44,997 nucleotides of DNA, taken from assembly GCA_964617945.1 (NCBI GenBank), contig CAZTXA010000002.1:1543-46539 (forward strand). Reading direction: 5' to 3'. The stretch comes from an uncultured archaeon (GTDB lineage: Archaea; Nanohalarchaeota; Nanosalinia; Nanosalinales; Nanohalalkaliarchaeaceae). Below, in pieces: positions 26,873-37,365 of this stretch (positions are counted from its first letter, which is position 1; every line of letters starts with the position of its first letter). The notes beneath the pieces were generated by a model. It was not told the origin of the DNA. It did not search any database and saw only the letters and a list, made by a program, of their open reading frames with translations. Both the position numbers and the translations under genes were made by a program.

Positions 26873-27925
26873 CTATCCCAGGTAGTCCTGGTTCACGGTC
26901 TCACAGGCGGTTATGTGGTTCTCTCGGCTGATAGCTGTCCCGGAGGAAACACTGTCAACATCGTCGAACCCGATCTTCCCCGTGTACAGCGCATCCGCCA
27001 CCGCGGGGTTCTCGGCGATCCGCCGGTAGCCCTGGAAATAGATGTGGTCCTTGACGAACCCGCCTGGCTGCGCCGTATCCGGTATCCCCCGTTTCACACG
27101 GTACGTCCGGATGTACGCTGCACGCCCGTCCAGCCCGAGGTCCCGCATCGCCTGGTACAGGTCGTGGAACCCGTCGCCGATACGGTCGACGGCGAGCACC
27201 CGCGCAGTGATCTTGGGCAGGGAAACGTGCAGTACGTCCATCGCCGCCTCGTTGAACGTTGCCAGTCCCTCCTCCGCGGCCTCGTATCCCGCGGTGCCGT
27301 ACATCAGTGCGGTCGTGCCGGTCGCGCGACCGTTCACAGCGCGGACGGCGTGCGTGGACTCGTGCACCAGCAACCGCTTCGCCCCGTCAACGGTGTACGA
27401 CTTGTCCTGTGGTACGAGGATGCGGGACTCGTGCGGACTGTTCCGGATGATCTCATTGTCGCCCATCGACGCCGCGTAGTCGACACCGAGCCGGTCGAAC
27501 AGTGCGTTGAACGCTTCCGTCACCACCTCGCTCTGGATAGATTCTGTGCCTGTATCGTCTGGCGGGGTGAACTGGTCCCGCGCCGCTGCGACGAGGTCAG
27601 TGGATGGCGACCCGTAGTGCTCCCCCGACATTGCTGTGAGTTCTCCCGTCCCGATCGCCGCTATCATGCGGTGCCGGGACCGCAGCCCCGCGACAAGGCG
27701 CTCCTCGAGAACGGTCTCTGCACTGTCCTCCAGCTCCGCCAGCGCTCCTGCGACCTCCTCGTCCTGGTCAAAGTCCCGGTACCGGTACGACGGCGTGTAC
27801 GTCCTCCCGTCTTCGACAGCGGCCATGAACTGCTCCCGCTCCTCCGCAGCATTCACCGGCTGCAGGTAGTGGTACAGGTCAAGCATCGCATCCAGGTCTG
27901 CGACAGTATCCTGCGGCAGCGCCAT
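26873..27925 (-). CDS. DUF1704-family metallopeptidase (QEGLA-motif / MATCAP-type gluzincin carboxypeptidase-like)
   Basis: 350 aa. Zinc motif LLVHESTHAVRAVNG, the downstream family motif AAEEGLATFNEA (QEGLA-like), and RVKRGIPD..GGFVKDHIYFQG. Confidence 0.75.
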   Translation of the reverse strand: MALPQDTVADLDAMLDLYHYLQPVNAAEEREQFMAAVEDGRTYTPSYRYRDFDQDEEVAGALAELEDSAETVLEERLVAGLRSRHRMIAAIGTGELTAMSGEHYGSPSTDLVAAARDQFTPPDDTGTESIQSEVVTEAFNALFDRLGVDYAASMGDNEIIRNSPHESRILVPQDKSYTVDGAKRLLVHESTHAVRAVNGRATGTTALMYGTAGYEAAEEGLATFNEAAMDVLHVSLPKITARVLAVDRIGDGFHDLYQAMRDLGLDGRAAYIRTYRVKRGIPDTAQPGGFVKDHIYFQGYRRIAENPAVADALYTGKIGFDDVDSVSSGTAISRENHITACETVNQDYLG

Positions 27926-27946
27926 ACACTACCTGTCAGGCCGGAG

Positions 27947-27957
27947 TTTACATAAAT
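27947..27957. promoter_or_regulatory. Shared bidirectional TATA-like element between the divergent DUF1704 and ATP-grasp genes
   Basis: TTTACATAAAT is centred at 27952, exactly 27 nt from ATG 27925 (minus strand) and 27 nt from GTG 27979 (plus strand). It is the only AT-rich element in the 53-nt spacer. Confidence 0.45.
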
Positions 27958-27978
27958 GGTCGGTCGCCACGTGTACGT

Positions 27979-28854
27979 GTGACGATGCGTATCGGTGTGG
28001 CAGGGACGGACCGGCAATATGAAGAGGAAGGGATCGTGGCGGAACTCGAGGACCGGGGGCATGACGCAGTGTTCATCGACCCCGCCGATGTCTCCTATCT
28101 CCTGACCGGCGGAGAACTGACGGTGCGGTACCGGGGGCAGAGCCTGAACGACCTCGACCTCCTGTACATGCGCCGCACCCGGTTCGACGTGGAGGCCAGC
28201 CGCGACCTCGTCGCCGCAGTCGACACGCTCGGCATCCCGACAGTGGAGAAGAAAGCGGTGTTCTTCAACCCGCTGTCAAAGTTCTACAGCCTGCTCAGCT
28301 TCGTCGGCGCAACAGTGGACGACGTGGAGATCCCGGCGACGGCAGTGGTCCGGGAGGAAGGAGAGGCGGGTCCGATCGCCGGCGCCATCAGCTATCCCTT
28401 GATCGTCAAACCTGTGAGCGGCCGTGAAGGAGAGGGCGTGACACGGATCGACGAACGGGAAGAACTCGAAGCCGCACTCGACGAGGCCGAATTCCCTGTG
28501 TTGCTGCAGGAATATATCGAGATCGAGGACGAATACCGCGTCCTTGTGGTCGGCGACGAACCGCTCGGCACCGCTGTAAAAAAGGCCGAGGAAGGAGCCG
28601 AGACCCGGAACTATGCGCAGGGGGCGGAGTTCGCGGCGGTCGACGCGCCTGCGGTCGAACGGGCCGCGGTCGCGATCGCTGACCTGATGGAGATAGAGGT
28701 CGCCGGCGTCGACATCGTGGAGGCGGCCGACGGCACCCTGTACGAGATCGAATGTAACCGCTGTCCACAGTTCGAAGGGTTCGCCGAGGCACACCCCGAT
28801 GTCGATGTGCCCGGCCGTATCGTCGACTACCTGGAGGGACGTGCCGGGACATAA
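27979..28854 (+). CDS. RimK-family ATP-grasp ligase (paralog 1)
   Basis: YPLIVKPVSGREGEGV (K plus Gly loop), LLQEYIE, DEYRVLVVG, RNYAQGAE, VAGVDIVE...LYEIECN. This is the full RimK/LysX-type motif set. The start is GTG 27979 or ATG 27985. Confidence 0.8.
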   Translation: MTMRIGVAGTDRQYEEEGIVAELEDRGHDAVFIDPADVSYLLTGGELTVRYRGQSLNDLDLLYMRRTRFDVEASRDLVAAVDTLGIPTVEKKAVFFNPLSKFYSLLSFVGATVDDVEIPATAVVREEGEAGPIAGAISYPLIVKPVSGREGEGVTRIDEREELEAALDEAEFPVLLQEYIEIEDEYRVLVVGDEPLGTAVKKAEEGAETRNYAQGAEFAAVDAPAVERAAVAIADLMEIEVAGVDIVEAADGTLYEIECNRCPQFEGFAEAHPDVDVPGRIVDYLEGRAGT

Positions 28855-28873
28855 TCCCGGGGCAGTGGTGGAT

Positions 28874-29935
28874 ATGGCTGGAAAGGAGAAGCGACGCCTT
28901 GTCTCGTTCAAGATCTGGGACAGGGACGATCAACGGACAGAACACCACGTCCTGGAGGAATACGTCGTGGAGGGTGCAGGCGATGGCCCACACGTCGTCT
29001 GTGTCTCCGGTTCTCACGGCGACGAACTCCTTGCGATCGATGCCGCAAAACGGGTGTACCGCGAGCTCGACCCTGAAGACGTGGACGGAACGGTCTCGTT
29101 CATCCCCGAAGCGAACATGTTCGCGGTCGCGAAGGGAACCCGGGAGACGCCGGTCCCGGAAGTGGAGATATACGAGGACGAGGAACGCAACCTGAACCGG
29201 TGCTTCAGCAACGTCGACCTCGACGAAGAACCTGGTGGGAACATCACGGAACGCCTCGCCTATCACATCCTCGACCTGGTCGTCTCTGCGGACTACTGTC
29301 TGGACCTGCATACTGCGACCGCGCCAGGCTACAAGGTGGACCAGATCCGCGAAAAAGCAGACCGGCACGTGGACGCGGAGGTCCGCAGCGAGCAGGAGAA
29401 CCTTGTGCGGAACGCCGGCGTCCCGTACATCCTCCGAACCTCCACCGACACGATCGGGAGGGGCGTGCTGTCCGGGGTCGCACCGCGGCACGGCGTCCCA
29501 GCGGTCACGGTCGAGATCGGCGGTGGGATGTATACGCCGACAGAACTCGACGAATACGTCGACGTGATACAGAACCTGCTGATCACTGCCGGCGTCATCG
29601 ACGGCGACCGGACGACCGGTGAGCAGCAGGTGTACCAGGAGCTGGTGAAGATATCTGCACCGACCGCCGGCGAATATAGGAAGGCCGCGCCGCCCGGCGA
29701 GACCGTCTCCCGCGGCGATGTCATCGGCCAGATCGAGAACGATTCCGGTGTGCACGAGGTGGTAAGCCCTGTCGACGGCCTGGTGGAGTCGGTGCACCAG
29801 AAGGACTGGGTGAACGAGGGTACGAAACTCGGCCACATCGCGGTCCCGGAAGATACAGGGATGGTGGCAGACCTTGTCAGAGCCCTCTCTCGGACGCTCG
29901 ACGGGTTGCTTGCGCGTGCACGTACTCCATCATGA
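28874..29935 (+). CDS. Succinylglutamate desuccinylase/aspartoacylase-family (AstE/AspA, M14-like) zinc hydrolase
   Basis: Start trimmed to ATG 28874. Zinc ligand motifs VSGSHGDE (HxxE) and YCLDLHTA (third His), NLNRCF, plus a C-terminal beta-domain (GDVIGQIEN...VSPVDGLV). Confidence 0.75.
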   Translation: MAGKEKRRLVSFKIWDRDDQRTEHHVLEEYVVEGAGDGPHVVCVSGSHGDELLAIDAAKRVYRELDPEDVDGTVSFIPEANMFAVAKGTRETPVPEVEIYEDEERNLNRCFSNVDLDEEPGGNITERLAYHILDLVVSADYCLDLHTATAPGYKVDQIREKADRHVDAEVRSEQENLVRNAGVPYILRTSTDTIGRGVLSGVAPRHGVPAVTVEIGGGMYTPTELDEYVDVIQNLLITAGVIDGDRTTGEQQVYQELVKISAPTAGEYRKAAPPGETVSRGDVIGQIENDSGVHEVVSPVDGLVESVHQKDWVNEGTKLGHIAVPEDTGMVADLVRALSRTLDGLLARARTPS

Positions 29936-30770
29936 CCGCCGGGAGATCGGCGCCGACCGCCTCCTGCGTCTCCGCAGGGACGCCGGGCGACATGTTAAGC
30001 TCGATCACATACGCGTCCTCCTCTGTCTGGATCATGTCGACCCCGCAGATATCGAAACCGGCCAGGTGCGCTGCTGTTACCGCGGCCTCCCGCACCTCCT
30101 CGGGCGCGTCATACTCCTGACGGTTCGCCCCCTGCGACACGTTTGACCGCCACTCCTCCTCCCCGGTCGCCACCCGCTTGTATGAATAGGTCTTGTCCCC
30201 TACCACGATCACCCGGATGTCCTCACCCGGATGGTCGACGAACTCCTGCAGGCATACATCCTGCTCGAACAGGGTCAGCGTGTCCACGAACGGGCCGAGA
30301 TCAGACGCTGTCGATGCCCGCATCACGCCTTCACCGCCGTACCCGGAGATGAGTTTGATGACGACAGGGTATCCGAAGTCTTCTGCGCCCCGCTTCGTCT
30401 CCTCGGTCGACAGCACATACGCTGACCGTGGAACACTGACGCCGCCGTCTGCCAGTACTTTCATCGCGTAGAACTTGTTGGACGCGATGGTCAGCGAGTC
30501 GGGATCCACCTGCGTGTACACGCCGTTGTCGATAAGGATCTCCGGGATTTCCTCGCTGAACAGCATATCGCTCCCGAATACACGGATGAACGCGGCGTCG
30601 AACTCCGACAGGTCAGTATTCCCGTATTTTATCGTGGCCCCGTCCTCGGTGTCCACCATCCGGGTACCGGTGACGGGGACGGCCGTGACCGTGTCGAAAT
30701 ACTGTTCAGCGGCCTCGATAAACAGGTCGTGCTGGGTAGACGTCTCGCCGTACAGGATGCAGAGATCCAT
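29877..30770 (-). CDS. RimK-family ATP-grasp ligase (paralog 2)
   Basis: YPVVIKLISGYGGEGV, CLQEFVD, EDIRVIVVG, WRSNVSQGA, ICGVDMIQ...YVIELNMSPG. The 3' end overlaps the convergent AstE/AspA-like gene by 59 nt. Confidence 0.85.
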   Translation of the reverse strand: MDLCILYGETSTQHDLFIEAAEQYFDTVTAVPVTGTRMVDTEDGATIKYGNTDLSEFDAAFIRVFGSDMLFSEEIPEILIDNGVYTQVDPDSLTIASNKFYAMKVLADGGVSVPRSAYVLSTEETKRGAEDFGYPVVIKLISGYGGEGVMRASTASDLGPFVDTLTLFEQDVCLQEFVDHPGEDIRVIVVGDKTYSYKRVATGEEEWRSNVSQGANRQEYDAPEEVREAAVTAAHLAGFDICGVDMIQTEEDAYVIELNMSPGVPAETQEAVGADLPAVMMEYVHAQATRRASERGL

Positions 30771-30773
30771 AGG

Positions 30774-31583
30774 TCAGTCCTCCAGCATCTCGGCCACGTT
30801 TCCGTACACGTTTTTACCGCTGACCTCGTGGAACCGTTCCAGGTCCGGGTCGAGCGCCGCGTCCACCACGGTGTCCCCGACCAGGCGGACCCGGCAGATA
30901 TCGGCGCCGATCGAGGTGGCGGCCTCGACCACTACCTCCTCCAGCTCCGAGGAGATGGAGTGGTAGGACTCGCTCGCGTCGCCGCTCCGTTTCCGCCACC
31001 CCTCTCCTTCCAGGCTGAGCGAGACGACGGTGCCGTCGATGTAGAGGCAGTCGTACACATCCCCCTCGACCTTCTCCTGGAGCACGAGGAAGTGGTCGCC
31101 GTGATCAAGGTGTTCCGCGAACGATGACAGCTCGTCCTCGGATTCCAGGAGGCTCATATCCCGCCGCTCGAACCCCTCGAACTTCTTCCCGATCAACGGG
31201 TAGGACAGGTCTTCCTCTAGCCCTGACACACCGTTCTCTGTTGACACGGTCGCGGTCGGTGGGATCGGAACGTCACGCTCCGACAGGACGTGGTAGAGAT
31301 AGCTCTTCTTCGCGAGGATGAAGAACGCTGTCGGACCGATGTTCGTCGTGATATCGCGGTCGATCAGTGTCTCCAGGAGGACGCGGGAGAAGATCGCGAT
31401 CCGTGTGTTCGGCGCCAGGTACAGCGCGTCGTAGGAATCTACCGGCTCCCCGTCGACGAGGACCTCTGTCTCCTCTCCCGCAACGATCCGTGTGTCGGCG
31501 ACGGACGCCTGGTCGACCGTATCGATATGTTCCTGCAACCGGTCGACGAGCGTGTCGTCGTCAGTTATCGTCAGAAGGTTCAT
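30774..31583 (-). CDS. Divergent RimK-like ATP-grasp paralog (paralog 3), probably catalytically degenerate
   Basis: Same length and collinear with paralog 2 (YPLIGKKFEGFERRDM; LVLQEKVEG; ICRVRLVGD...VVDAALDPD). The Gly-rich loop and the E-x-N Mg/ATP ligand motif are not conserved. The start overlaps the upstream gene by 23 nt, and the stop lies 3 nt from the paralog 2 ATG. Confidence 0.55.
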   Translation of the reverse strand: MNLLTITDDDTLVDRLQEHIDTVDQASVADTRIVAGEETEVLVDGEPVDSYDALYLAPNTRIAIFSRVLLETLIDRDITTNIGPTAFFILAKKSYLYHVLSERDVPIPPTATVSTENGVSGLEEDLSYPLIGKKFEGFERRDMSLLESEDELSSFAEHLDHGDHFLVLQEKVEGDVYDCLYIDGTVVSLSLEGEGWRKRSGDASESYHSISSELEEVVVEAATSIGADICRVRLVGDTVVDAALDPDLERFHEVSGKNVYGNVAEMLED

Positions 31584-33132
31584 CCTCTTCCCCCGTGCCG
31601 TTCCCGTTCGGCTGCCACATCGTCGTGACCGCGTCCCCTGTTTCCTCCGCCCGCCACCCCTCCATGAAATCCTCGACGACGTTCGGGACCACCTGTTTGA
31701 GGACGTCTCCCTGCCGCAGGATCTTGCTCAGCTGTACCTCCAGGTTCTTGCTCAACTGCCTGTACAGTGACAGGTTGGCATATACCAGTTCGTTCTTGAT
31801 ACGCCAGAAACTCGTGGTGCCCCGCGGCGCCAGCACGATATATCCGCCGCCGTCGGTGGCAGTGATCGCGTTCTGCATCTCCGACGCTTCCACGTAGTAC
31901 ACGCCGCCGGCCCCGTTTGTTTCGGGGTCCACGACCAGTAGTTCGTCTCCCTCGACAGCGACCACGAGGACGTACCGCTCCGTCTCCGACCCGGGGAACA
32001 GCACCTCCTTGTCCAGGTAGGGGATGAGCAGTGCCTCGTTATCCAGCCACACCTTCGCCTCTGTCCCCAGTTCGGTGATCTTTCCACCTTCCACAAACCC
32101 GTACCGGAGTTCACCGCCGGCCATTGACTCCAGGACGGTGCCGAGTTCGTCCGGCGTCGGATGGGTGTCGTCCAGTTCCTCGCTGATATCGCCCTGTGTC
32201 GCGTCGAACCCGAACATCGTGAGCGCCATCTCCCCCGCCGCTGCACCCCGGTATTCCGACTGTTCGGAGACGAAATATTCCGTGATCTCTGCCAGCGTAT
32301 CGACATCGGCGGCCACCCGTTTGAACAGGATTTCACGGTCCATCAGGTTCTTGTTCGGGGACAGGAGGAAATACCCGGAATCCGTGTTTATCGTGGTGCT
32401 GAACGTCGAGGTCTCCCTGATTTCGCCGGTCTCATCGTCCAGCTTGATACGTTTCCCCGGTTTCAACACGTCAGAGCCGCGGAGATAGATGCCTGCGGCG
32501 TAGTTCTGGATCAGGTCCTTGAACCCGAAGAACCCGAGCAGTACAAGGAGCAGGACGATACCGTAGGACGCGGCCGTGACCGTTGTGTCGATGATGTGGG
32601 TTGACACGCCGAGCTGGATGATGGCGATCTCCAGCACCACAAAGTAGAGGAACAGTTTGATACCGGTCAGGAACCCGTCCAGTACCTTCGGTGACACCCC
32701 GACCGTCCGGGCCTGCCGCTTCACGTTCAGGTTCTCTATGAACCCGCGGATCAACGCTATAACGCCTTTGACAAGGATTATACCGAGGATGAACAGGAGT
32801 GCGGCTGTGATGACGCGCGGCGCGTACCCCACGATGCGGCGGCTGAGCTGTCCGACGGCGGACGCATTGATATATATCGTGGCGGTGACCAGCGTCAGCA
32901 CGACGACCGCGTATTCGACCACTCTGTCAGGCGACCGGCCGCGTCGCCGGACCCGTTCGACAGGGGTGCCACGCTGTGCAGCGGCTTCAACAAGGTACCG
33001 GACGAGCTGACCGGCCAGCCGGGCGAGGACGATCCCGCCGCCCAGTATCAGTGCTGTGACCGCTATCTTCACCCCGATATTCTGCTGAATAAGCGCGAGA
33101 GCGGCGCTCTCGAGCTGAGAAACCACTACCAT
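31561..33132 (-). CDS. MscS-family mechanosensitive channel fused to a C-terminal cysteine-free peptidase-C39-like domain
   Basis: The N-terminal half has TM helices and an MscS TM3/beta-domain signature (FGFKDLIQNYAAGIYLRGSDVLKPGKRIKL...GEIRE...LLSPNKNLMD). The C-terminal region resembles papain-like C39 domains (EQSEYRGAAAGEMALTMFGFD...RYVLVVAVEGDELLVVDPETN...YIVLAP). The whole 523-aa protein contains no Cys. Confidence 0.7.
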   Translation of the reverse strand: MVVVSQLESAALALIQQNIGVKIAVTALILGGGIVLARLAGQLVRYLVEAAAQRGTPVERVRRRGRSPDRVVEYAVVVLTLVTATIYINASAVGQLSRRIVGYAPRVITAALLFILGIILVKGVIALIRGFIENLNVKRQARTVGVSPKVLDGFLTGIKLFLYFVVLEIAIIQLGVSTHIIDTTVTAASYGIVLLLVLLGFFGFKDLIQNYAAGIYLRGSDVLKPGKRIKLDDETGEIRETSTFSTTINTDSGYFLLSPNKNLMDREILFKRVAADVDTLAEITEYFVSEQSEYRGAAAGEMALTMFGFDATQGDISEELDDTHPTPDELGTVLESMAGGELRYGFVEGGKITELGTEAKVWLDNEALLIPYLDKEVLFPGSETERYVLVVAVEGDELLVVDPETNGAGGVYYVEASEMQNAITATDGGGYIVLAPRGTTSFWRIKNELVYANLSLYRQLSKNLEVQLSKILRQGDVLKQVVPNVVEDFMEGWRAEETGDAVTTMWQPNGNGTGEEDEPSDDN

Positions 33133-33241
33133 GATGGTCTACAACCCAATCAGGTAAGGGATTTAAATAAGTAATGAATCTCTGACGGCGGGAATACCGG
33201 TATAGAAGGAATATAAGGCGGTTTTAACCTGTTTTCAGGTG

Positions 33242-34459
33242 TTACACGATGGTGCCGGCGCCGATCAGCCGCCACCGCGACCCCATACGTCGGGAAACCG
33301 CCACAGTATCGCCTTCTTCGGCGCATACCGGCCGTTTCAGCTGGACGGTGATGGTGGACCCTGCCTCGGTGACCGCTCCAGAACTCTTCCCTGTGCCGAC
33401 GTTCAACAGGAGCGGCTCGCTCTCCGCTATCGGGTCCACTGTCTGTTCCTCCTCGCTCCCCACTACCGCGTCCATCAGGTCGACCTCGATCTCCAGCTCC
33501 TCACGGACCGGTGGGAGTTCGCCTTTCCGCCCCAGGATATTGCCTGCCAGGTTATCGGACTTTGTCAGCGATGGGTCGAGCCCTGTTTCAACGCCGAGCA
33601 ACCCGCCGGGCCGGCCTTTTTCCACCTGGTTCTGGCCGTGGATGATGCTCCGTGCCTCCGTCTCGACTGGCTCCCAGCTCCCGTCACGTTCATATCCAGG
33701 TTTCAGCGCGATCTCGTCGCCGACCTCGATCTCGCCGCGCTGCAGGCTGCCGCCGACCACGCCGCCCTGCAGGGCCGCCGGCTCGGTGCCGGGCTTGTTG
33801 ATGTCGAAGGAACGGGCGACGAGCATCTTCGGTGCCGCGTCCGCGTCCCGCTCCGGCGTCGGGATATGCTCCTCCACCGCGTCGAGCAGCACGTCGATAT
33901 TGGTCCGGTGCTGTGCCGATATCGGGACGATAGGTGCGTCCTCCGCGACGGTGCCCTCGGTGAACGCTTTGATCTGCTCATAATTTTCCCGTGCCGCTTC
34001 CTCGTCCACCAGGTCGATCTTGTTCTGCACCACGACGATGTTCTCGATACCGACCCGTTCCATGGCCGCAAGGTGTTCCCGTGTCTGCGGCTGTGGCACC
34101 TCCTCGTCCGCCGCAACCAGCAGGAGGGCGCCGTCCATGATAGCGGCGCCGGACAGCACGTTCGCCATCAGTGTCTCGTGCCCCGGGGCGTCCACCAGCG
34201 ACACGCTCCGCACCACCTCAGCATCCTCCCCGCACTCGCTGCACTCCTCCTCGACCGTGTACCGGTCGCAGTCGCTGCAGTACCGGACGGTCACGTCCGC
34301 ATACCCGAGCCGGATCGTGATCCCCCGCCGCAGTTCCTCAGAATGCGTATCCGTCCACTCACCACTGAGCGCGTCGGTCAGCGTGGTCTTCCCGTGGTCG
34401 ACGTGGCCGACGAGCCCGATGTTTGCCTCCGGTACAGGGACGTCCCCCACCGTGACCAC
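33242..34459 (-). CDS. eif2g: Translation initiation factor aIF2 gamma subunit
   Basis: [15 protein letters not shown], zinc knuckle CSDCDRY...CSECG, DAPGHE, NKIDL. Confidence 0.95.
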
Positions 34460-34939
34460 CTACGCCTCGTCCTCCGCGTCGTCCTCAGGTTTATCGTCGT
34501 CCTCGCTGGAATCTTCGTCTGTCTCGGCATCGTCTTCGCTTCCAGCGTCGTCCGCGTCTTCCCCGTCCGGTCCTTCACCGAGCAGTGTCGCGACGTCCTC
34601 GCTCCCCTCCTCGACCACCGACAGGTTGACCTGCGCGATCTGCTGGGAGACCGTGTTGCCGCGGACAGATATCCGTGTCCGCTCCCCGTCGTCAAGGTCG
34701 CGGGCGCCTGTCCCGCCGTCCAGGAGCAGCCGTTTCCGGCCTGTCCCGTCGACACCGGGGCGCATCGGGAAGCCTTCCGTATCGCTGCCGCCCGTGATCC
34801 GGAGCGTGTACCCGTCAAGGCCGACCAGCGATCCTTCCACCTCGTCGCCGATGCTACGCCCTGTCAGGCGCTGTGCCTGTTGGTCCGTGAGTTCGATCTG
34901 AAAACTTTCGCCGTCCGTCGTTCCGATAACCGCGTCCAT
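34460..34939 (-). CDS. rps6e: Ribosomal protein S6e with acidic C-terminal extension
   Basis: GYTLRITGGSDTEGFPMRPGV...GERTRISVRGN is the canonical S6e core. The last 40 or so residues are D/E-rich (..GEDADDAGSEDDAETDEDSSEDDDKPEDDAEDEA). It abuts the aIF2-gamma start. Confidence 0.9.
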   Translation of the reverse strand: MDAVIGTTDGESFQIELTDQQAQRLTGRSIGDEVEGSLVGLDGYTLRITGGSDTEGFPMRPGVDGTGRKRLLLDGGTGARDLDDGERTRISVRGNTVSQQIAQVNLSVVEEGSEDVATLLGEGPDGEDADDAGSEDDAETDEDSSEDDDKPEDDAEDEA

Positions 34940-35066
34940 GTTGTATTCACCTGCTCAGTCACCGCGTAGCGGGTTCCGAGCAGTCCTCCCTTACCGCACC
35001 AACCTTTTAAATCGTGTTCGCCGCGGTGAACGTAATTATTTAAGCCGGGCGGCCGGACGGAGACGT

Positions 35067-35924
35067 ATGGCGGTACTGGGACAGGTGCTGGAACAGGCAT
35101 GGCAGCAGATCCTGGCATTCTTGCAGGCGGAGACTGCGGCCCGCCCCAGACTGTTCGCCGTCCTCGTCCTCCTCATCCTCGGGTTCGTCGGCGGCCGGAT
35201 CATCGCGGAGATGGTCCGTACCCTGCTCAAAATGACGGCGCTGGACGACCTTGCGGTCAAGGCGGATATCCAGCCCATGGTCAGGCAGCTCGGGTTCCGC
35301 GGAACGATGTCAGATTTTATCGCGGTCATGGTCAAATGGCTCATCTACATCCTGGCGGTCCTGTCGGTGCTGTACGTGTTCGGGTTCCAGTTCGCCGCGG
35401 AATACTCTACTATCCTGGTGAACTGGGGGACGCGCATCGTCCTGGCCGCCGCGGTGATGCTCCTGGGAGCGGTGATCGCGTCGCAGCTGGAGGAGCTGAC
35501 GGTGCACCTGTTCCGGGTGAGCAGGTTTACAGGACTGGTTGACGAATCCGGTGCGGAAATCCCGGTGTACGTCATCGCCGGGAAGGCGGTGAAATATCTC
35601 GGCCTCCTGGTGACGTTCCTCGTCGCCCTCGGCGTGGCCGGGATAGACCTCCTCATATTGAACGTATTGGTGGTGATGCTTGCGCTCGGCGTCATCGCTG
35701 CACTGGTGATCGGGACACGTGACCTCGTCCGCAATATCGCAGTCTCAGTATACTTCCAGCTGTCACGCGTATTCGGTGCAGGCGACCGGATCAGTGTCGG
35801 AGAATATACGGGCGAGGTAGCGGGGATCCGCCCGATGTACACCAAGCTCGAGGACGGTGGCACCGTATTCTACGTGCCGAACTGGAAGCTCGCGACCGAG
35901 GTCATCGAACAGGAGGAGGAATAG
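35067..35924 (+). CDS. MscS-like mechanosensitive channel family protein (TM-helix repeats + beta domain)
   Basis: Start trimmed to ATG 35067. Repeated TM-helix modules, then RDLVRNIAVSVYFQLSRVFGAGDRISVGEYTGEVAGI...VPNWKLA (MscS TM3/beta-domain pattern). It ends in ...IEQEEE. TATA-like ATTATTTAAG lies about 25 nt upstream. Confidence 0.65.
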   Translation: MAVLGQVLEQAWQQILAFLQAETAARPRLFAVLVLLILGFVGGRIIAEMVRTLLKMTALDDLAVKADIQPMVRQLGFRGTMSDFIAVMVKWLIYILAVLSVLYVFGFQFAAEYSTILVNWGTRIVLAAAVMLLGAVIASQLEELTVHLFRVSRFTGLVDESGAEIPVYVIAGKAVKYLGLLVTFLVALGVAGIDLLILNVLVVMLALGVIAALVIGTRDLVRNIAVSVYFQLSRVFGAGDRISVGEYTGEVAGIRPMYTKLEDGGTVFYVPNWKLATEVIEQEEE

Positions 35925-35925
35925 G

Positions 35926-37365
35926 ATGCGGTGGACGGTGGTTAACTATTACACCGGCGTATTCCTCCGGATTTTCTCGGCGCTGTTACTGGCCCCGGTC
36001 GTGGTCGGAAAGTATTACGGTGAGAGCTTCGTCCAGCTCGAACCATTCCTGATCGCGTCGTTCACTGCGATCACGTTCGGCTGGGCGCTGTCCCGCACCG
36101 GGAACGAGGCGCGGCCGGAGCCGGTGGAGGCGATGGCCACGGCGACAGCGTCCTGGCTGCTCGCTGTCGGACTGGCCGCCATCCCGCTCGCCACGCTCGC
36201 CGACATCTCGTTCATGAACGCCTACTTCGAGGCGATGTCCGGGATGACAACGACGGGCATGTCGATGCTGTCCACAGGTGAACTCCCCAGGTCGCTCCTG
36301 TTCTGGCGGTCGTTCATGCAGTGGGTCGGCGGGCTCGGCATCCTCACATTCTTCGTCGCGGTCCTGGTGGAGTCTGGCGGTGTCGCCCGGAAACTGGTGG
36401 ATACAGAGTCGAACAAGATCGCAGGCGCCAGCGTCCGCGCCTCCCTGTTCAACTCGATCAAATCACTGTGGTACGTATACATCGTCCTCACCGCCGTCGA
36501 AATCGTTTTACTGGTGCACTTCGGGTTCCCGTCGTTCGAGGCGGTCACCCACTCGATGTCGACCCTCCCGACCGGCGGGTTCGCGTCCGTCCCCGACCTC
36601 GGTGCATTGATGAACCCTGGGGCGAAGGCGACCATCACCCTGTTCATGTTCCTCGGCGGCACCAACTTCCTCCTTATCTACAGCGTTATGCGCGGGAACA
36701 TCCGCCGCATGGTGAACGACTTCGAGTTCCGTCTGTACCTGTCGATAACGGTGCTGGCATTCCTCTTCGTTGCCGCAGATCTGATCCTGTCCACCGGCCA
36801 GGCGGTGCCTGAGGCGATAGGGACAGCTGGCTTCCACGTGCCCTCGGTGATAAGCTCGACAGGATTCGAGCTCGAACCGGTACGGTCGTTCCCGGACGTG
36901 TCACGGTTCCTGTTCCTCGTGATGATGTTCATCGGCGGCTCACTCGGGTCGACGACCGGCGGGTTCAAGATGATGCGGATCGGTATCATGGCAAAACTTG
37001 TAGCGCAGCAGATACGGTCGCTCGGTATCCCGCGGACGGTGGTCAACCCGGTCACAGTCGGGGGGAACATCCTCGGAGACGATGAGATACGGCAGGTCTC
37101 CGCCATCCTGTTCCTGTGGCTCGTCGCTGTCGTTGCAGGGGGGGCGGTGACGGTCGGCCTCACCCAGTACGGGATTACAGAGTCGATACAGCTGATGACC
37201 TCGTCCGTGGGGACCATGGGACCGACATTCATCCCCCAGGCCGAACTGGCCGGACTCCCGCCGCTGGTCAAGGTCTCGCTGATGGTAGGTATGCTCGCGG
37301 GCCGCCTAGAAATGCTGCCGCTGCTCAGCATCCTGAACATCCGTCTCGTCCAGAAATTTGCTTAG
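35926..37365 (+). CDS. trkH: Trk-type K+ uptake system membrane subunit TrkH
   Basis: Start trimmed to ATG 35926, 1 nt after the preceding stop. It has the repeated M1-P-M2 selectivity-filter-like motifs MTTTGMS, LPTGGF, VISSTGFE and GSLGSTTGGFK. Confidence 0.9.
   Translation: MRWTVVNYYTGVFLRIFSALLLAPVVVGKYYGESFVQLEPFLIASFTAITFGWALSRTGNEARPEPVEAMATATASWLLAVGLAAIPLATLADISFMNAYFEAMSGMTTTGMSMLSTGELPRSLLFWRSFMQWVGGLGILTFFVAVLVESGGVARKLVDTESNKIAGASVRASLFNSIKSLWYVYIVLTAVEIVLLVHFGFPSFEAVTHSMSTLPTGGFASVPDLGALMNPGAKATITLFMFLGGTNFLLIYSVMRGNIRRMVNDFEFRLYLSITVLAFLFVAADLILSTGQAVPEAIGTAGFHVPSVISSTGFELEPVRSFPDVSRFLFLVMMFIGGSLGSTTGGFKMMRIGIMAKLVAQQIRSLGIPRTVVNPVTVGGNILGDDEIRQVSAILFLWLVAVVAGGAVTVGLTQYGITESIQLMTSSVGTMGPTFIPQAELAGLPPLVKVSLMVGMLAGRLEMLPLLSILNIRLVQKFA

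Follow-up and report, generated by a model that had tools for sequence, protein, structure and literature searches.

Within the 44,997 nucleotides of nanohaloarchaeal DNA analysed here (the window), a gene on the minus strand encodes an MscS-like channel protein of 523 amino acids whose cytoplasmic end is a papain-like domain stripped of its catalytic residues. Sequence and predicted structure indicate that residues 280-446 form a domain of the C39/C39_2/phytochelatin-synthase group, which takes the place of the alpha/beta domain of MscS. The explanation that we favor, and hold to be probable when taken as a whole, is that this protein is a channel carrying a dead peptidase domain, that the domain is a regulatory or docking link to the ATP-grasp ligases encoded beside it, and that its ancestor may have been a hydrolase. 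The gene and its parts are:

31561..33132, minus strand: MscS-like channel with papain-like (C39/phytochelatin-synthase-like) pseudo-peptidase domain, 523 amino acids; whole gene, no Cys
32518..33132, minus strand: residues 1-205, five predicted transmembrane (TM) helices, N-out/C-in, including the PF05552 helix 96-137 and the pore helix TM3a 185-204
32323..32517, minus strand: residues 206-270, TM3b (NYAAGIYL) and MscS beta domain (PF00924)
31795..32295, minus strand: residues 280-446, predicted papain-like domain in place of the MscS alpha/beta domain (MS_channel_3rd)
31603..31794, minus strand: residues 447-510, family-specific C-terminal extension, with two long helices (454-498) and a terminal strand (502-506) with the conserved W506

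The initial annotation had described a Cys-free, MscS-like open reading frame of 523 amino acids, and this was borne out. The translation contains no Cys and two His, and the interval then singled out (31770..32280) corresponds to channel residues 285-455. Two Pfam models matched above their cutoffs: PF00924 (MS_channel_2nd, the beta domain) at residues 206-267, with 26.9 bits against a cutoff of 20.2, and PF05552 (MS_channel_1st_1) at residues 96-137, with 25 bits against a cutoff of 22. In a phmmer search of Protein Data Bank (PDB) sequences, the best match was Helicobacter MscS (4hw9, expect value (E) 1.9e-5, residues 116-269), followed by Escherichia coli MscS. The counterpart of the TM3b sequence NYAAGIYL in E. 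coli is, as we take it, NLAAGVLL. Bulky Leu and Phe are abundant in the pore helix instead of Gly and Ala. Five hydrophobic segments were predicted, and the positively charged loops 42-67 and 129-151 were assigned to the inside. This N-out/C-in topology would place all of the sequence past the beta domain in the cytoplasm, which is where this part lies in MscS channels in general. A full-length AlphaFold model (predicted local distance difference test score (pLDDT) 80.4) has long TM helices and a beta domain at 228-270, and Foldseek matched it to MscS, YnaI, MSL1, and MscK structures at E about 3e-6, with MscS of T. cruzi also among the matches. The beta domain ends at approximately residue 270 in this model and runs directly into the papain-like domain, and the alpha/beta domain model MS_channel_3rd (PF21082) had no Pfam match in the protein. 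Thus the pore TM3 and the beta domain that define MscS membership are present and the alpha/beta domain of the cage is absent. With five TM helices, a pore helix, and a beta domain, sequence and model identify the gene product as an MscS-family channel subunit, its heptameric assembly and tension-gated conductance being predicted.

The relationship of the C-terminal part to C39 peptidases is transitive. The window domain itself did not match the Pfam C39 models, even at E<=10. A search with residues 275-523 returned four close fragments from Nanohaloarchaea (P0001-P0004, 59-84% identity), and the C-terminal 249 amino acids matched a more distant relative, P0005, at E 5.6e-22. P0005 in turn matches Peptidase_C39_2 (PF13529) with 34.5 bits against a cutoff of 24, so that homology of the window domain to C39 peptidases runs through P0005 and those relatives that match PF13529. 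In a Pfam scan of 46 family members, 34 matched PF13529 (C39_2), 29 PF03412 (C39), 18 PF05023 (Phytochelatin), and 6 PF11814 (DUF3335). A profile of the dead-domain clade plus P0005 gave nothing significant against PDB sequences; NMNAT and CDC123, which came up at E about 1, were dismissed as chance matches. A match of the C-terminal domain to GSIII_N below the cutoff (Pfam/NCBIfam, E 0.011-0.046) was likewise taken as noise.

Predicted structure points in the same direction. An AlphaFold (AF2) model of residues 268-523 (pLDDT 81.6, predicted template-modelling score 0.80) had as its top Foldseek match Alr0975, a phytochelatin-synthase-like protein of Nostoc, at E 2.9e-6, with about 190 aligned columns, 16-19% identity, and TM-scores of 0.45-0.63. 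Further matches included papain-like CdiA-CT toxins, the pseudomurein endoisopeptidase PeiR, and a putative C39-like peptidase of Bacillus anthracis (3erv), and the C39 domains of PCAT1, ComA, and LahT followed at E about 1e-3. The C39-like resemblance first noticed by eye is therefore not a matter of chance, given the P0005 match, the Pfam matches of homologues, and the fold search, which returned papain-like and C39 folds rather than an unrelated fold or an ordinary MscS alpha/beta domain. The motifs on which that observation had been based lie at residues 290-310 (32203..32265) and 385-403 (31924..31980). The approximately 65-residue extension that follows the domain was modelled with low confidence and leads into an acidic tail.

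Active members of the family share the pattern Q-x-P-S-x-C-G-P-A-S ... A-H-Y-S ... D-P in the family alignment. The corresponding positions in the window protein are:

32263..32265, minus strand: E290, at the position of the oxyanion-hole Gln (family alignment)
32248..32250, minus strand: R295, at the position of the catalytic Cys (CGPAS motif), just before helix 297-306 in the model
31975..31977, minus strand: R386, at the position of the catalytic His (AHYS motif; family alignment)
31927..31929, minus strand: D402, of the pair D402-P403, at the position of the third catalytic residue, which is retained

The model agrees with these assignments, with R295 preceding helix 297-306 and R386 and D402 at the ends of adjacent strands, as in a papain-like arrangement. 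The pair D402-P403 shows no variation in the 46-sequence alignment A2 and hardly any in the wider family. The initial annotation had already placed Arg at the catalytic His, which is correct for R386, but had read the nucleophile position as Ala or Gly, where the family alignment gives R295. Its conclusion that the protein is no Cys protease holds, since Gln, Cys, and His are replaced by E290, R295, and R386. The lack of Cys is weak evidence on its own because the local proteome is Cys-poor: at the 0.6% Cys of neighbouring genes, a Cys-free protein of 523 amino acids has P of about 0.04, and it is the alignment that decides. GC content in the window is ~60-68%, and the encoded proteins are acidic.

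The complete Gln, Cys, His, and Asp set was kept in 65 of 92 non-identical, domain-complete sequences (~70%). In a neighbour-joining tree, sequences from halophiles formed one clade with two parts, an active subclade (L012, L013, L006, P0006, and P0008) and a large dead subclade that includes the window protein. Gln, Cys, and His were lost jointly in the dead subclade of Nanohaloarchaeota. Within the halophile clade the catalytic loss was monophyletic; non-halophilic DPANN lineages account for at least two further independent losses. The intact set is the apparent ancestral state of the family. Read from its residues, the window domain is a pseudo-peptidase.

The fusion of MscS to a papain-like domain is a small and coherent family. 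A profile search recovered 45 proteins, mostly of about 494 amino acids with precomputed PF00924 and PF13529 matches, from Woesearchaeota, Nanobdellota, Aenigmarchaeota, and Nanohaloarchaea. When 1.84 billion representatives (clusters at 50% identity) were searched exhaustively with HMMER, only 65 proteins were found, nearly all of 480-545 amino acids with the papain-like domain at the C terminus, and a metagenome scan added only three loci. By these searches, the domain is nearly always fused to MscS and the family is compact and almost confined to DPANN archaea. The window protein follows the family pattern of an N-terminal MscS part, a C-terminal C39_2-like domain, and the extension (GGVY, LAP.G, R444, Y451, Y457, W506), and keeps every nearly invariant position of the family save the catalytic ones. 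Its nearest relative, from a metagenome-assembled genome of Candidatus Asbonarchaeaceae (phylum Nanohalarchaeota), has the same gene order and is 80% identical over the C-terminal 249 amino acids and 87% identical in the N-terminal channel part. P0043 (463 amino acids, on a contig of 2.9 kb) combines AAA_23/AAA_15/SMC_N ATPase domains with a C39_2-like region, has no MscS part, and may be either a chimeric assembly or a different architecture. On a low-GC DPANN metagenome contig, an MscS-C39 gene with the catalytic set intact (L001:2-1406) carries a +1 frameshift at approximately position 500-560, between the TM3b region and the beta domain, which is either a sequencing error or the mark of a pseudogene.

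The dead domain is under purifying constraint comparable to that of the channel, so that this pseudo-peptidase would have kept a non-catalytic job. Between the window gene and its orthologue at locus L007, the ratio of non-synonymous to synonymous substitution rates (dN/dS) was 0.12 in the papain-like domain (dN 0.11, dS 0.93) and 0.114 in the TM and beta regions; values for more distant pairs are unreliable, with dS saturated or undefined. The equality with the channel part rules out a reading of the domain as decaying or as a pseudogene. The broader idea of a decaying relic, or of residual hydrolysis by non-canonical residues, is scarcely credible. It would accommodate the replacement of Gln, Cys, and His by different residues in close relatives. 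It does not fit a dN/dS that matches the channel part, a reading frame intact in all orthologues, the 59-84% identity kept among P0001-P0004, or the persistence of the dead state across a deep subclade, and the protein contains no Cys and no alternative residue that is conserved at the old site. Active and dead clades have 22 conserved positions in common, including Y387, D402-P403, G410-V411-Y412, Y431, R444, Y451, Y457, and W506.

The genes around the channel gene in the window are:

34460..34939, minus strand: ribosomal protein S6e
33242..34459, minus strand: aIF2gamma
30774..31583, minus strand: degenerate RimK paralogue, 269 amino acids, whose start at 31583 gives a 23-nucleotide overlap with the channel gene
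29877..30770, minus strand: ATP-grasp protein of the RimK-family alpha-L-glutamate-ligase type, 297 amino acids, catalytic motifs intact
28799..29935, plus strand: Zn carboxypeptidase-like protein of the AstE/AspA type (succinylglutamate desuccinylase/aspartoacylase)
27979..28854, plus strand: second RimK-family ATP-grasp ligase, 291 amino acids
26873..27925, minus strand: MATCAP/DUF1704 (QEGLA) metallo-carboxypeptidase homologue, 350 amino acids
34938..35924, plus strand: short MscS paralogue, 328 amino acids, ending right after the beta domain, with no cytoplasmic cage
35857..37365, plus strand: TrkH K+ transporter, with an apparent overlap with the short MscS gene

The initial annotation had proposed that a 23-nucleotide overlap couples the channel gene to ATP-grasp ligases. 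The overlap is real and the gene order is conserved, but the overlapping gene is a degenerate paralogue and the true RimK-type ligase is the gene after it. The 269-residue protein still matches TIGR00768 (30.7 bits) and RimK in PDB (7qyr, E 9e-4), but the Mg-binding GVD has become RVR, E-x-N has become D-A-A, and the Gly-rich loop is lost, as in every orthologue from Nanohaloarchaeota. From these substitutions, it is most likely a pseudo-ligase. The order channel, degenerate ATP-grasp, RimK holds for the window and, among the other Nanohaloarchaeota loci, for all 11 whose sequence continues beyond the 3' end of the channel gene; the loci named for this order are L002, L003, L006-L013, L016, and L018, and orthologues with an intact triad are included. 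Where upstream sequence is present, it continues the order S6e, aIF2gamma, MscS-C39. The core order was missing in five of five DPANN loci from non-halophiles (L001, L004, L005, L014, and L017). Within the loci examined, the channel gene of Nanohaloarchaeota is always co-located with the pair of pseudo-ligase and ligase.

This conserved neighbourhood bears on the possibility that the domain is a structural cage only, serving as vestibule, filter, or oligomerisation scaffold with no ligand, the ATP-grasp genes being merely operon partners. We regard that as possible, though doubtful. Such a role would suit the conservation of the 22 core positions and of the extension in both clades while catalytic and adjacent positions drift in the dead clade, and non-halophile members do without ATP-grasp neighbours. 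MscS homologues can also work with little or no cage, as the fold match to T. cruzi MscS and the 328-residue paralogue in the window illustrate. What speaks against a purely structural part is the adjacency to the degenerate ATP-grasp and RimK genes, often overlapping or nearly abutting, in the window and the 11 other loci, an arrangement common to active and dead clades even at identities as low as about 30-45%. It would also leave unexplained why about 70% of the family has the full Gln/Cys/His/Asp set.

The genes beyond the core differ between active and dead lineages. MATCAP, often together with an AstE-like gene, was found in seven of eight clusters with a dead domain and in none of three with an active domain, and loss of the triad thus goes with the presence of MATCAP/AstE in a manner that is suggestive. 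Two of the active-domain clusters (L012 and L006) have instead of MATCAP a GCS2 carboxylate-amine ligase (glutamate-cysteine-ligase family 2), encoded directly after the RimK-type ligase (L012:9446-10504 and L006:2499-3530). Taken with the phytochelatin-synthase-like fold, these neighbours hint at gamma-glutamyl-peptide chemistry in the active lineages.

In the mechanism that we favor, the papain-like domain would lie in the cytoplasm, in seven copies below the pore of each channel. As a regulatory or docking module, it would couple the behaviour of the channel to the presumably co-transcribed degenerate RimK paralogue and active RimK-type ligase, most plausibly by binding the ligase complex or its putative acidic peptide product. 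The whole module would act in osmotic or K+-glutamate homeostasis of an organism with a salt-in strategy, with a Trk K+ transporter and a second MscS encoded nearby. Where the triad is intact, the domain itself may have been the hydrolase that opposes the ligase; in dead lineages, the MATCAP and AstE-like carboxypeptidases of the cluster appear to have taken over this role.

Several observations weigh against this mechanism. Ten positions conserved among active members only (Q290, S293, C295, P297, G324, T325, G344, H386, M423, and R429) are relaxed in the dead clade. The initial annotation had proposed a peptide-sensing or peptide-gated channel; this relaxed neighbourhood of the active site makes it less likely that the old substrate groove was reused for binding, and the ancestral peptide-binding groove may not be preserved. 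Replacements vary between close relatives, with R, E, A, P, Q, T, S, or M at position 295 and R, Q, S, E, or G at 386, so that no new specific residue has been selected there. The association of dead domains with carboxypeptidases comes from few, phylogenetically non-independent loci, one of which (L002) is an exception. The adjacency of TrkH and the second MscS, as well as the insertion into a translation cluster, may be historical accident. The AF2 model is a monomer built from an alignment of mostly active homologues, with the C-terminal helices (454-498) at low confidence. Finally, the ligand, the binding of domain to ligase, and the channel activity are all predicted. An Arg-lined site for an acidic ligand at R295 and R386 had also been considered; it was dropped, as these residues vary even among close relatives.

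A reading that we think improbable makes the channel the membrane output of a hitherto unrecognised cytoplasmic osmotic buffer of glutamate polymer in salt-in nano-archaea, gated by the polymer or by the ligase complex. RimK-type ligases would store free glutamate, the counter-ion of K+, as osmotically silent oligo- or poly-glutamate, and the MATCAP and AstE-like carboxypeptidases would free it again. The threshold for gating would be set by the seven dead domains below the pore, which, with the degenerate RimK as adaptor, would detect the polymer or the ligase complex. If true, this would be a peptide- or enzyme-gated MscS, and the relatives with an intact triad would be membrane-tethered peptidases, the first MscS channels with enzymatic activity.

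Processing and export in the manner of PCAT, in which a peptide made or modified by the ATP-grasp ligases would be recruited by the C39-like domain in the way of HlyB, cleaved in active relatives, and released through the MscS pore, seems very improbable to us. The fold does match the C39 domains of PCAT1, ComA, and LahT, homologues match the C39 Pfam models, ATP-grasp ligases are adjacent, and a cytoplasmic domain beside a membrane pore parallels the exporters of the ATP-binding cassette (ABC) type that carry C39 domains. The closest structures, however, are phytochelatin-synthase-like enzymes and isopeptidases rather than double-glycine proteases, no candidate for a precursor peptide gene was noticed, and the residues near the groove are relaxed in the dead clade. 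We know of no peptide passage through MscS pores and of no energy source for transport there. No ABC transporter was found among the neighbours at 26873-37365 or in the gene calls of the related loci that were inspected.

Other features of the neighbourhood were recorded. The short MscS and TrkH pair lies upstream of S6e in most Nanohaloarchaeota loci (L007, L008, L010, L012, and L015). The AstE/AspA-like protein has a C-terminal biotin/lipoyl-like domain (PF00364, E 1.6e-6), and the real start of its gene is probably downstream of 28799. The pairing of ligase and carboxypeptidase at 26873..29935 resembles the eukaryotic pair TTL/MATCAP for tubulin tyrosination and detyrosination. In the window and at L002, L003, L012, and L013, a translation-transcription cluster houses the channel and ligase module, which separates aIF2gamma from the PIN_9, RpoE', Spt4, and S24e genes. 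A eukaryotic ATP-grasp protein, CDC123, binds eIF2gamma (PMC4431377). The S6e protein in the window ends in a long acidic tail (...EDDDKPEDDAEDEA) with 28% Asp and Glu, which might reflect simple halophily or could be a substrate-like tail for the glutamate ligases nearby. The classical target of RimK is bacterial S6.

The initial annotation had considered the architecture undescribed. Literature searches found no paper on an architecture of MscS with a peptidase-type domain, but the combination of MscS and C39_2 is already visible in precomputed database annotation and is not unique to the window protein, which belongs to a DPANN family of ~65 clusters, mostly with the catalytic set intact. 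Some NCBI records label members "C39 family peptidase" or "mechanosensitive ion channel domain-containing protein". The MscS cage is viewed as a conserved hallmark that filters and also senses cytoplasmic conditions, and in this whole archaeal family a protease fold has taken its place. Natural active and dead versions in related organisms would provide a comparative system for the effects of an enzyme and a pseudo-enzyme on channel gating, and the system bears on how transporter-attached pseudo-peptidases evolve, the C39-like domain of HlyB being a parallel case. It also bears on the role of the widespread modules of RimK-type ligase and peptidase in osmotic homeostasis. The three-gene module of channel, pseudo-ligase, and ligase is a candidate for osmoadaptation of the host-dependent, halophilic Nanohaloarchaeota.

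Among MscS-family channels, accessory domains of a cytoplasmic or ligand-related kind occur in MscS, MscK, YnaI, and YbiO of E. coli, the cyclic-nucleotide-binding bCNG channels, and the glutamate exporter MscCG of Corynebacterium glutamicum. The window channel shares with the family the TM3a/TM3b pore helix, the beta domain, and a cytoplasmic C-terminal part, but lacks the canonical alpha/beta domain and has the papain-like domain there instead. A terminal beta-barrel of the cage is a hallmark of the family, and a terminal strand (502-506) is predicted in the window protein.

With C39 and C39_2 peptidases, the window domain shares the papain-like fold by its predicted structure, and its homologues, though not the window protein itself, match PF13529 and PF03412. 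In a 2023 survey of papain-like families, C39_2 members are single-domain peptidases whose link to transporters is through neighbouring genes, and mechanosensitive channels go unmentioned (PMC10318531). The window domain falls short of the profile threshold, lacks the catalytic Cys and His and the oxyanion Gln, and lacks the context of an ABC exporter, and is therefore not to be filed as a C39 peptidase.

A parallel is the C39-like domain of HlyB, a Cys-less C39 fold on which substrates dock at the cytoplasmic side of an ABC exporter. Like it, the window domain is missing its nucleophile and is still attached to a membrane transport protein, on the predicted cytoplasmic side. It differs in being at the C terminus of an MscS protein rather than at the N terminus of an ABC transporter, in having also lost His and the oxyanion Gln, and in being followed by the ~65-residue extension of its family. 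Its positions near the groove are relaxed, and docking would apply by analogy only.

Alr0975 (NsPCS, MEROPS C83) is the best fold match, and 18 of 46 family members match the Phytochelatin model of Pfam. Its gamma-glutamyl-peptide chemistry would suit the GCS2 and glutathione-synthetase-like ATP-grasp genes beside the active orthologues in Nanohaloarchaeota. The window protein differs in having no catalytic residues.

In the rlo system of Pseudomonas, the RloA proteases are needed for tolerance of hypo-osmotic stress, and rloB and rloC act genetically in the same pathway (PMC11957051). RimK and RimB have been reported to control the levels of glutamate and poly-alpha-glutamate as well as glutamylation of ribosomal S6 (PMC11957051). 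The rlo system, with a 7TM protein bearing an inactive transglutaminase, resembles the window module in joining a membrane protein with an inactive domain to a RimK-like ATP-grasp protein and to one or more peptidases that possibly oppose the ligase. The rlo system has a genetic tie to tolerance of hypo-osmotic stress, and the membrane part here is a predicted hypo-osmotic release valve of the MscS type. They differ in that the domain here is C39-like and not a transglutaminase, the membrane part is MscS and not 7TM, and the peptidases are MATCAP/AstE-like metallopeptidases and not a retropepsin; the domain of RloB is periplasmic and that of the window protein predicted to be cytoplasmic. We take the inactive transglutaminase of RloB to have a papain-like fold. 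The channel had no Pfam match to PF14400 or PF14402 (7TM_transglut / Transglut_i_TM). By analogy, rlo would be the closest functional precedent for the module in the window, the likeness being one of system design rather than of homology.

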